A stretch of 64,000 bases of DNA, from assembly GCF_041886205.1 (NCBI RefSeq), contig NZ_CP169029.1. One strand, 5' to 3'. The DNA comes from Escherichia coli. Its GTDB lineage: Bacteria > Pseudomonadota > Gammaproteobacteria > Enterobacterales > Enterobacteriaceae. The notes under the pieces are model-generated. The model saw only the letters and a program-made list of their open reading frames with translations, searched no databases and had not been told where the DNA came from. Of this stretch, positions 12,098 to 13,098 are shown piece by piece. Position numbers and translations under genes: made by a program. The stretch's first letter is position 1; every line of letters starts with the position of its first letter.

Positions 12098-13023
12098 TCT
12101 GCAACATACAGGTGCAGCCGTGGAATGATCAAACGAAGCGGCTGCGCTTGTGGTTTATAACGGTGCTGCACATTGTCGGCATCGTAATTTAACAACTCAC
12201 CAACATCCGGCACGCCCGCGCCATTATCCCGATTAATCAGCGCAATAAGCGGTGTAGGGCAAGCGTGTTGTACTTGTTTTTGATCTCCTTTGTACCAGAC
12301 GCGGGCAATCGGCTGCACCTTCACCGGACGTTTGATTTTTAACTTCGCGTTCTGTGGCAGGGCAGCGATATCCTGATACTCTCGCTCCAGTTTTCTTTGC
12401 CACTCCTCGCGCGTCCACGGTGCGACACTGCGTGGTGATTTCAGGCTTTTTTCCAGCTGTGCCAGGACTTCATCACGATGCAAATTCTTAATGATATGTT
12501 TATTGGCCCAGCCAAAACGTAAAGTGGCGGGGTCGTGCAGAACAGTGAGCGTGCGGTAAGCATTAAGGGTGATCAGCCCCGGCAAATGTCGATGCACCCA
12601 TTCAAAACGCGCCGCGGTGGGGAGTTCTGACTCAACCGTGACGATATGCTCGAACGTAGTCTTGAGTTGATTGATGTGCTGAATATGACTGACCAACGCT
12701 GCTTGCGAAAGGTTATCGACCTGGTAACACAACACGCCAGGCAGACGGACAGCGACTTTGCTGCTGCGATTTTCGGACTGTTGTTGAATAAATAAATGGC
12801 GGAAATGACGCAACGCCAGCGACTGCGCGTCGTTGCCGAGATGTTGTTTCACCTCAATACGATTAAGCGGATTATGCTCATCCTCTTTTTTTACCTCCGG
12901 CAAAGAGAACACGCGGGCAACTAATAGCTTGTGTTGCTCAAGATGAGCGGCAAATGCAGCCAGCTCTTGTTCCATCTGGCGAAAAGTAGTGTTGAGTCGG
13001 TCTACGAGATCGTAACGCGCCAT
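12094..13023 (-). CDS. tus: DNA replication terminus site-binding protein Tus
   Basis: ORF trimmed to the internal ATG giving a 309-aa product beginning [10 protein letters not shown]; convergent 4-bp overlap with fumC stop. Confidence 0.9.
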
Positions 13024-13033
13024 AATATTAACC

Positions 13034-13057
13034 ACTTTAGTTACAACATCCTTAATT
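13034..13057 (-). other. Ter (replication termination) site, TerB-like, in the tus promoter region
   Basis: Minus-strand sequence AATTAAGGATGTTGTAACTAAAGT contains the Ter core GTTGTAAC, about 10 bp upstream of the tus ATG. Confidence 0.8.
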
Positions 13058-13098
13058 TATAGCACAGTGGTGGTGACTTGACCACCGTGCGCGTAGTG

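Follow-up and report, generated by a model that had tools for sequence, protein, structure and literature searches.

Passages of three papers (PMC8347550, PMC8707476, PMC12809603), citing Roecklein et al. 1991 and Natarajan et al. 1991, place terB within or overlapping the tus promoter and state that Tus represses its own synthesis. In PMC8707476, the Ter site is placed 11 bp in front of the tus ATG, and the arrangement with a Ter site next to tus is already described across Enterobacterales. Forks are arrested most often at TerC, one of the high-affinity sites (TerA-E and G), and TerB serves only as a back-up for a TerC that fails or is not bound (PMC8707476). The importance of G6/C6 for the Ter lock is stated in the same paper. 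According to the legend of Fig. 3 of Goodall et al. [quoted passage not shown]

A stretch of 64,000 nucleotides from Escherichia coli (contig NZ_CP169029.1, assembly GCF_041886205.1), called the window below, was analysed, and its features are collected in Table 1. The preliminary description of this DNA had pointed to a Ter core with Ter-family flanks at 13021-13060. A 23-bp site was located in this interval, and it agrees with zero mismatches with the 14-nt pattern GNRNGTTGTAACKA, which we take to be the pattern of the Ter family. Position 1 of the Ter numbering is 13056, and position 23 is 13034. The alignment to the 23-bp TerB, suggested there as a check, was run using the K-12 sequence from NC_000913.3 (AATAAGTATGTTGTAACTAAAGT). 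The site is equal to the K-12 TerB at 21 of the 23 positions, and a match of this grade was found in none of 100 dinucleotide-preserving shuffles. The substitutions are A2T and T7G; the allele in the window starts with ATTAAGGATG, and that of K-12 starts with AATAAGTATG. The agreement with the Ter consensus at the invariant positions was also borne out, with G at position 6 of the written strand and positions 8-18 all intact and mismatches only at positions 2 and 7. As these two are variable positions, neither substitution touches the core, and the G6 that pairs with the lock-forming C6 is kept. As judged from its position, strand, spacing and sequence, the window site is TerB.

The 8-bp core GTTGTAAC is not significant by itself, with two copies observed against 1.84 expected per window. 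The other copy (37456-37463, plus strand, in the ynfE/ynfF region, context ACAGATGTTGTAACCATTG) was rejected as a Ter site. Its bases at Ter positions 6 and 18 are A and C, its presence is within the chance expectation, and it is a chance occurrence. The site in front of tus might likewise be a fortuitous sequence without Tus function, as the 8-mer is expected about 1.8 times in the window and a second, non-Ter copy is present at 37456. However, the 21/23 match is absent from the shuffles, the position and spacing are identical to those of K-12, G6 is present, and the alleles share one core but differ in the flanks. Chance is thus refuted as the origin of the site in front of tus, and its probability is negligible.

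We consider, with a probability of about 93%, that one Tus-DNA complex at the E. coli TerB locus would act both as the tus operator and as a polar fork barrier. The sequence, spacing, strand, orientation, intact Tus and constancy of the core among alleles were observed here; the binding, repression and arrest are drawn from the K-12 literature. The TerB locus in the window is already known biology, in the form of a common natural variant.

Table 1. Features of the window discussed in the text (positions in the 64,000-nt stretch)
Feature	Position	Strand	Basis or remark
tus, DNA replication terminus site-binding protein, 309 aa, intact	12094..13023	-	Pfam PF05472; tus in the annotation of relatives
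Spacer GGTTAATATT, 10 nt, from Ter position 23 to the tus ATG	13024..13033	-	Identical in all sampled genomes
TerB, 23-bp Tus-binding replication-termination site (predicted), ATTAAGGATGTTGTAACTAAAGT	13034..13056	-	21/23 against K-12 TerB
Ter core GTTGTAAC, Ter positions 10-17	13040..13047	-	Invariant in 8/8 sampled E. coli genomes
Candidate extended -10 of the tus promoter, TGTGCTATAAA	13056..13066	-	Top score in the permissive scan
Candidate -35 hexamer TGGTCA (4/6)	13079..13084	-	17 nt upstream of the -10; permissive scan
rstB, upstream neighbour of tus	13099..14400	-	Bounds the intergenic region holding the candidate promoter and TerB
Qin/Kim-type defective lambdoid prophage beside rspAB	44574..64000	.	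Annotation of a 99.8%-identical relative, Pfam; runs past the right end of the window
Prophage integrase	44574-45869	-	
IS3-family element (IS1203/IS629-like), 1310 bp	47936..49245	+	Inverted repeats, domains, matching annotated copies

The gene next to the site had been named tus, and this name is confirmed. The Pfam family Ter (PF05472) matches the open reading frame with 456 bits (E=7.7e-137), and the translated protein is identical to the crystallised K-12 protein (chains of PDB 1ECR/2I06) at 306 of 309 residues. The ATG is located at 13023-13021. The substitutions relative to K-12 are I23A, A90V and K119Q. I23A is common to all sampled non-K-12 genomes, and it is I23 of the K-12 Tus that appears to be the exception. 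In this sample, A90V was observed only in the window and in its closest relative, strain wlxctx60. The neighbouring residue K89 is presumably a DNA-contacting residue. Tus of O157:H7 has I23A and L69Q, with A90. Co-variation of A90V with G7 of the Ter site was rejected, since O157:H7 pairs G7 with A90.

The genes are arranged in the order fumA (8905-10551, +), fumC (10694-12097, +), tus (-), rstB (-) and rstA. The stop codon of rstB precedes the tus ATG by 75 nt, and the tus-strand intergenic sequence reads ...CACTGTGCTATAAATTAAGGATGTTGTAACTAAAGTGGTTAATATTATGGCG. The Ter site is on the tus strand, and the 10 intervening nucleotides to the ATG are identical to those of K-12. [quoted passage not shown] This distance is correct for the end of the 23-bp site, but not for the core, the end of which is 16 nt from the ATG. 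The known TerB/tus autoregulatory arrangement, to which the locus had been likened, is documented (PMC8347550, PMC8707476, PMC12809603), and the allele carrying it here is A2T/T7G and not identical to that of K-12.

A strict scan for the sigma-70 consensus detected no promoter in 12700-13500. The tool demands T at position 6 of the -10 hexamer, and TATAAA is therefore passed over. In a permissive scan, the first rank was taken by TGGTCA - 17 nt - TGcTATAAA. The candidate -10 hexamer TATAAA corresponds to 13061-13056, and its final base is Ter position 1. Thus, the transcript would start within Ter. As Ter extends from this base to the point 10 nt before the ATG, bound Tus would occlude the promoter. 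From the permissive scan and the identity with K-12, TGGTCA/TATAAA is taken as the likely tus promoter. A weak Shine-Dalgarno-like AGTGG may be placed across the 3' end of Ter and the first bases of the spacer. In the same range, 12700-13500, the terminator scan gave a single weak terminator-like site, located inside rstB. A GGTGGT...ACCACC hairpin between rstB and tus is no more stable than shuffled sequences (z = -0.9), and it was rejected as a terminator or structured element. A perfect TTGACA at 13097-13102 (-) overlaps the rstB stop codon. The final rstB codon is GCT where K-12 has GCC, and this synonymous C>T change creates the hexamer, which is probably not a promoter; no acceptable -10 is present at a distance of 15-19 nt.

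Six TerB alleles were found among eight sampled genomes. The alleles differ from each other at Ter positions 1-5, 7 and 21 only; no variation was seen at positions 6 and 8-20, in the 10-nt spacer or in TGTGCTATAAA upstream. An invariant core with varying flanks is the footprint that would be expected if protein binding constrains the core and leaves the flanks free. The exact 77-nt allele spanning the site is present in 784 of 5,426 complete E. coli genomes, so that the combination of G7 and T2 occurs in about one in seven of them, O157:H7 included, and the same Ter allele is present in wlxctx60. The variation of terB at positions 2 and 7 has been described before, and the allele is already in hundreds of sequenced genomes. 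Several TerB alleles exist in nature; that of K-12, with which nearly all of the Tus-Ter biochemistry was done, is one of them, and the G7 allele is common.

The two substitutions, possibly together with A90V of Tus, may alter the affinity or the lock kinetics, and the set-point or the barrier strength would then be unlike that of K-12. Such a shift has in its favour that two positions differ from K-12, that T7G makes the 14-nt core the same as the TerC core, and that A90V adjoins K89, presumably a DNA contact. We regard it as very unlikely, since positions 2 and 7 are naturally variable and were judged unlikely to affect binding (PMC8347550), the sites with G7 include the high-affinity TerC, and A90V is unlinked to G7, O157:H7 having this Ter allele with A90. 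The polymorphism (T7 in K-12, G7 and T2 here) could also tune the residence of Tus at its own operator, an idea that we regard as very improbable. If it were true, lineages would differ in the cellular level of Tus and in the occupancy of the whole fork trap.

The window corresponds to 1.63-1.70 Mb of K-12 in reverse orientation (uidR...fumA-fumC-tus-rstBA...ynfA-rspAB-Qin), with the tus neighbourhood at 1.68 Mb. The GC skew of the plus strand is +0.043 for the whole window and +0.031 for the backbone alone (p=3e-6), and the excess of G over C is significant on either side of the Ter site. The KOPS motifs (4:0 for the plus strand, p=0.125) and the Chi sites (10:5 for the plus strand, p=0.30) point the same way, without being individually significant. 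According to the skew and KOPS, the plus strand is the leading strand. The usual fork thus moves toward higher coordinates, and it meets position 23, the permissive side, first. The non-permissive face of TerB, on the side of positions 1-6, is directed to higher window coordinates.

The chromosome of wlxctx60 (NZ_AP045833.1) is collinear with the window from 12 to 64 kb. Its TerB is located at 2,200,692-714, a TerC-type site is located at 2,127,614-627 between yneE and uxaB on the same strand as TerB, and dif is located at 2,101,821-848. The distances from TerB are 73 kb to TerC and 99 kb to dif, both on the non-permissive side, which is the right of the window. In K-12, TerB is 75 kb from TerC and 93 kb from dif, with dif at 1.59 Mb, and 79 kb from the antipode of oriC. 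The record of wlxctx60 begins in a prophage and not at dnaA, and the position was gauged by dif, TerC and the K-12 geometry. The GC skew, KOPS, and the TerC and dif of the relative agree that TerB would pass the dif-bound fork and block a fork leaving the terminus.

From the Ter site, the preliminary description had placed the window in the replication terminus region. This placement is supported by the synteny with K-12 and by TerC and dif lying 73 and 99 kb rightward in the relative, but the window itself has neither dif nor TerC, and neither matS nor a GC-skew switch. No dif was detected in the window at three or fewer mismatches. The right end of the window corresponds to 2,156,600 of wlxctx60; by this measure TerC is outside the window, about 29 kb beyond its right end, and dif is about 55 kb beyond that end. 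No switch of GC skew occurs in the window, the skew being positive throughout. No matS (the binding site of MatP) is present in the window, but this motif has a density of only about 1 per 49 kb (PMC3603311), and matS sites are found in relatives just beyond both ends of the syntenic span. These results indicate that the window is terminus-proximal and not the terminus itself. On this sequence evidence, the window belongs to one replichore and is placed within both the fork trap and the Ter macrodomain, without the fork-fusion zone. TerB can therefore be used as a map reference, which assigns the window to the left replichore, at about 100 kb from dif and with the plus strand leading. This placement helps to interpret the prophage orientation, IS insertions and strand biases, and is no advance for the biology of replication termination.

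The proposed dual action may be described as follows. As the operator, Tus from the adjacent gene would bind the 23-bp site, occlude the promoter and the region of the transcription start, and repress tus. As the barrier, the site would have the G-C pair at position 6 facing the dif side. A fork that overshoots dif and TerC and leaves the terminus would meet the non-permissive face. Unwinding by DnaB would then flip C6 into the pocket of Tus (the 'Tus-Ter lock'), and the fork would stop. The usual dif-bound fork would meet the permissive face and displace Tus. TerB would thus be the second barrier of the fork trap, catching the forks that escaped TerC.

The weight of the two roles can be questioned, and the site may almost solely set the Tus level by autorepression, with negligible fork arrest. 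TerC, 73-75 kb nearer to dif, catches the clockwise forks first, and a TerC-type site was found in the closest relative. In the view of Toft et al. (PMC8707476), TerB most likely comes into use only after a fork has run past an unbound TerC, and E. coli belongs to the type II traps, where the Ter site next to tus is not the innermost one. An ectopic non-permissive TerB is lethal, however, and the orientation of TerB is conserved and is the right one for a barrier. The operator and barrier roles are also compatible and not mutually exclusive. Thus, we consider a site serving almost only as an operator to be rather unlikely, and the dual action of one Tus-DNA complex is preferred.

The 3.3 kb around tus has a match in 5,424 of 5,426 complete E. 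coli genomes, and only 11 of these match at >=99%. The best match, at 100%, is wlxctx60, a strain from the faeces of a Japanese black bear. With only 11 of the 5,424 matches of tus-rstAB reaching this level, the source of the window belongs to a sparsely sampled lineage. From 12000 to 64000, the window is about 6.9 kb longer than the corresponding 2,156,600-2,201,748 of NZ_AP045833.1. The IS element accounts for 1.3 kb, and the remaining difference must be prophage content. In 2,090,001-2,140,000 of the same record, the DNA next to dif contains two site-specific integrases and a retron Ec78-type defence system (RT, PtuA, PtuB), and a Tn3-family transposon there splits hipA. The dif-proximal zone of the wlxctx60 lineage is packed with mobile and defence elements.

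The prophage and IS element that had been noted at 44-64 kb were both found, as a Qin-type lambdoid prophage from 44.5 kb with an IS3-family element in it. The GC content drops from 44.5 kb. The prophage contains a split exonuclease, DUF968/ydfU, the antiterminator Q, a lysis cassette, cspI and Lom, and the integrase, exonuclease, DUF968, Q and Lom were detected by Pfam within the window. A prophage is present at rspAB in several E. coli strains with a 99.8% match. In the annotation of a relative, the prophage carries integrase, excisionase, exonuclease, dicB, ydfA, a replisome organizer, hokD, ydfU, Q, essQ-rrrQ-rzpQ and cspI. Of these, dicB and hokD are known from the annotation of the relative only, and hokD is probably in a segment absent from the window. 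In every best-matching complete genome, the coverage of 42-64 kb is at most 87%.

The preliminary description had also placed the prophage in the terminus region as a known hotspot for prophage accumulation. The enrichment itself is published: prophages become commoner toward the terminus, and lambdoid prophages are co-oriented with the fork (Bobay et al., PMC3603311). The position of this prophage, however, does not follow from the Ter site. Qin of K-12 is annotated at the syntenic place (1,632,277-1,652,745), next to rspB as here. A conserved integration locus is thus the best explanation of where the prophage is.

The IS3-family element has 25-nt terminal inverted repeats and a 3-bp target duplication (TCC). 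Its two overlapping open reading frames carry HTH_Tnp_1 and rve, and an ALIL frameshift pseudoknot is located at 48271-48387. The exonuclease gene of the prophage is split by the element into 46213-47898 and 49206-49760. The intact TCC duplication suggests a simple, probably recent, insertion. Five Chi octamers (GCTGGTGG) are clustered in about 650 bp (54220-54869), three on the plus strand and two on the minus strand, in differing reading frames. This cluster is inside a ydfU-like DUF968/HNH-like gene of the prophage (54224-55228). The whole window has 15 Chi sites, and 1.9 are expected from shuffles. A match to the Rfam cspA thermoregulator (113 bits) was observed at 60538-60923 (+), where the annotation of relatives puts cspI, which suggests that a cold-shock 5'UTR may be carried by the Qin-type element.

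The closest described system is the TerB/tus operator of K-12, studied in the Hill, Kuempel and Bastia laboratories. It has the same rstB-tus locus, strand, 10-nt spacer and -10-like motif. Positions 6 and 8-23 of the Ter site are identical, and the orientation relative to dif and TerC is the same. The differences are A2T and T7G, three more base changes upstream, in the intergenic region and the end of rstB, and the three changes in Tus. In the case of O157:H7 and 783 other complete genomes, the 77 nt containing Ter, the spacer and the promoter-like motif are identical to those of the window. O157:H7 has an equal site, whereas its Tus differs (I23A and L69Q there; I23A, A90V and K119Q here).

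TerC of K-12, as read from the genome, is ATATAGGATGTTGTAACTAATAT. Its 14-nt core GGATGTTGTAACTA (positions 6-19) is identical to that of the window site, and this string was used as 'the terC sequence' by Bobay et al. (PMC3603311). The two sites agree at 19 of 23 positions overall, differing at Ter positions 3, 4, 21 and 22, and they are of one polarity class, that which blocks clockwise forks. TerC of K-12 is located between yneE and uxaB near dif, away from tus, whereas the window site is TerB by position. In the type I fork traps of Edwardsiella, Dickeya and Proteus (Toft et al. 2021, PMC8707476), the tus-vicinal Ter likewise doubles as the tus operator. There it is the innermost site, whereas here and in K-12 a TerC-type site is located further in. 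As such a site is present in the closest relative, the trap to which the window belongs corresponds to type II.
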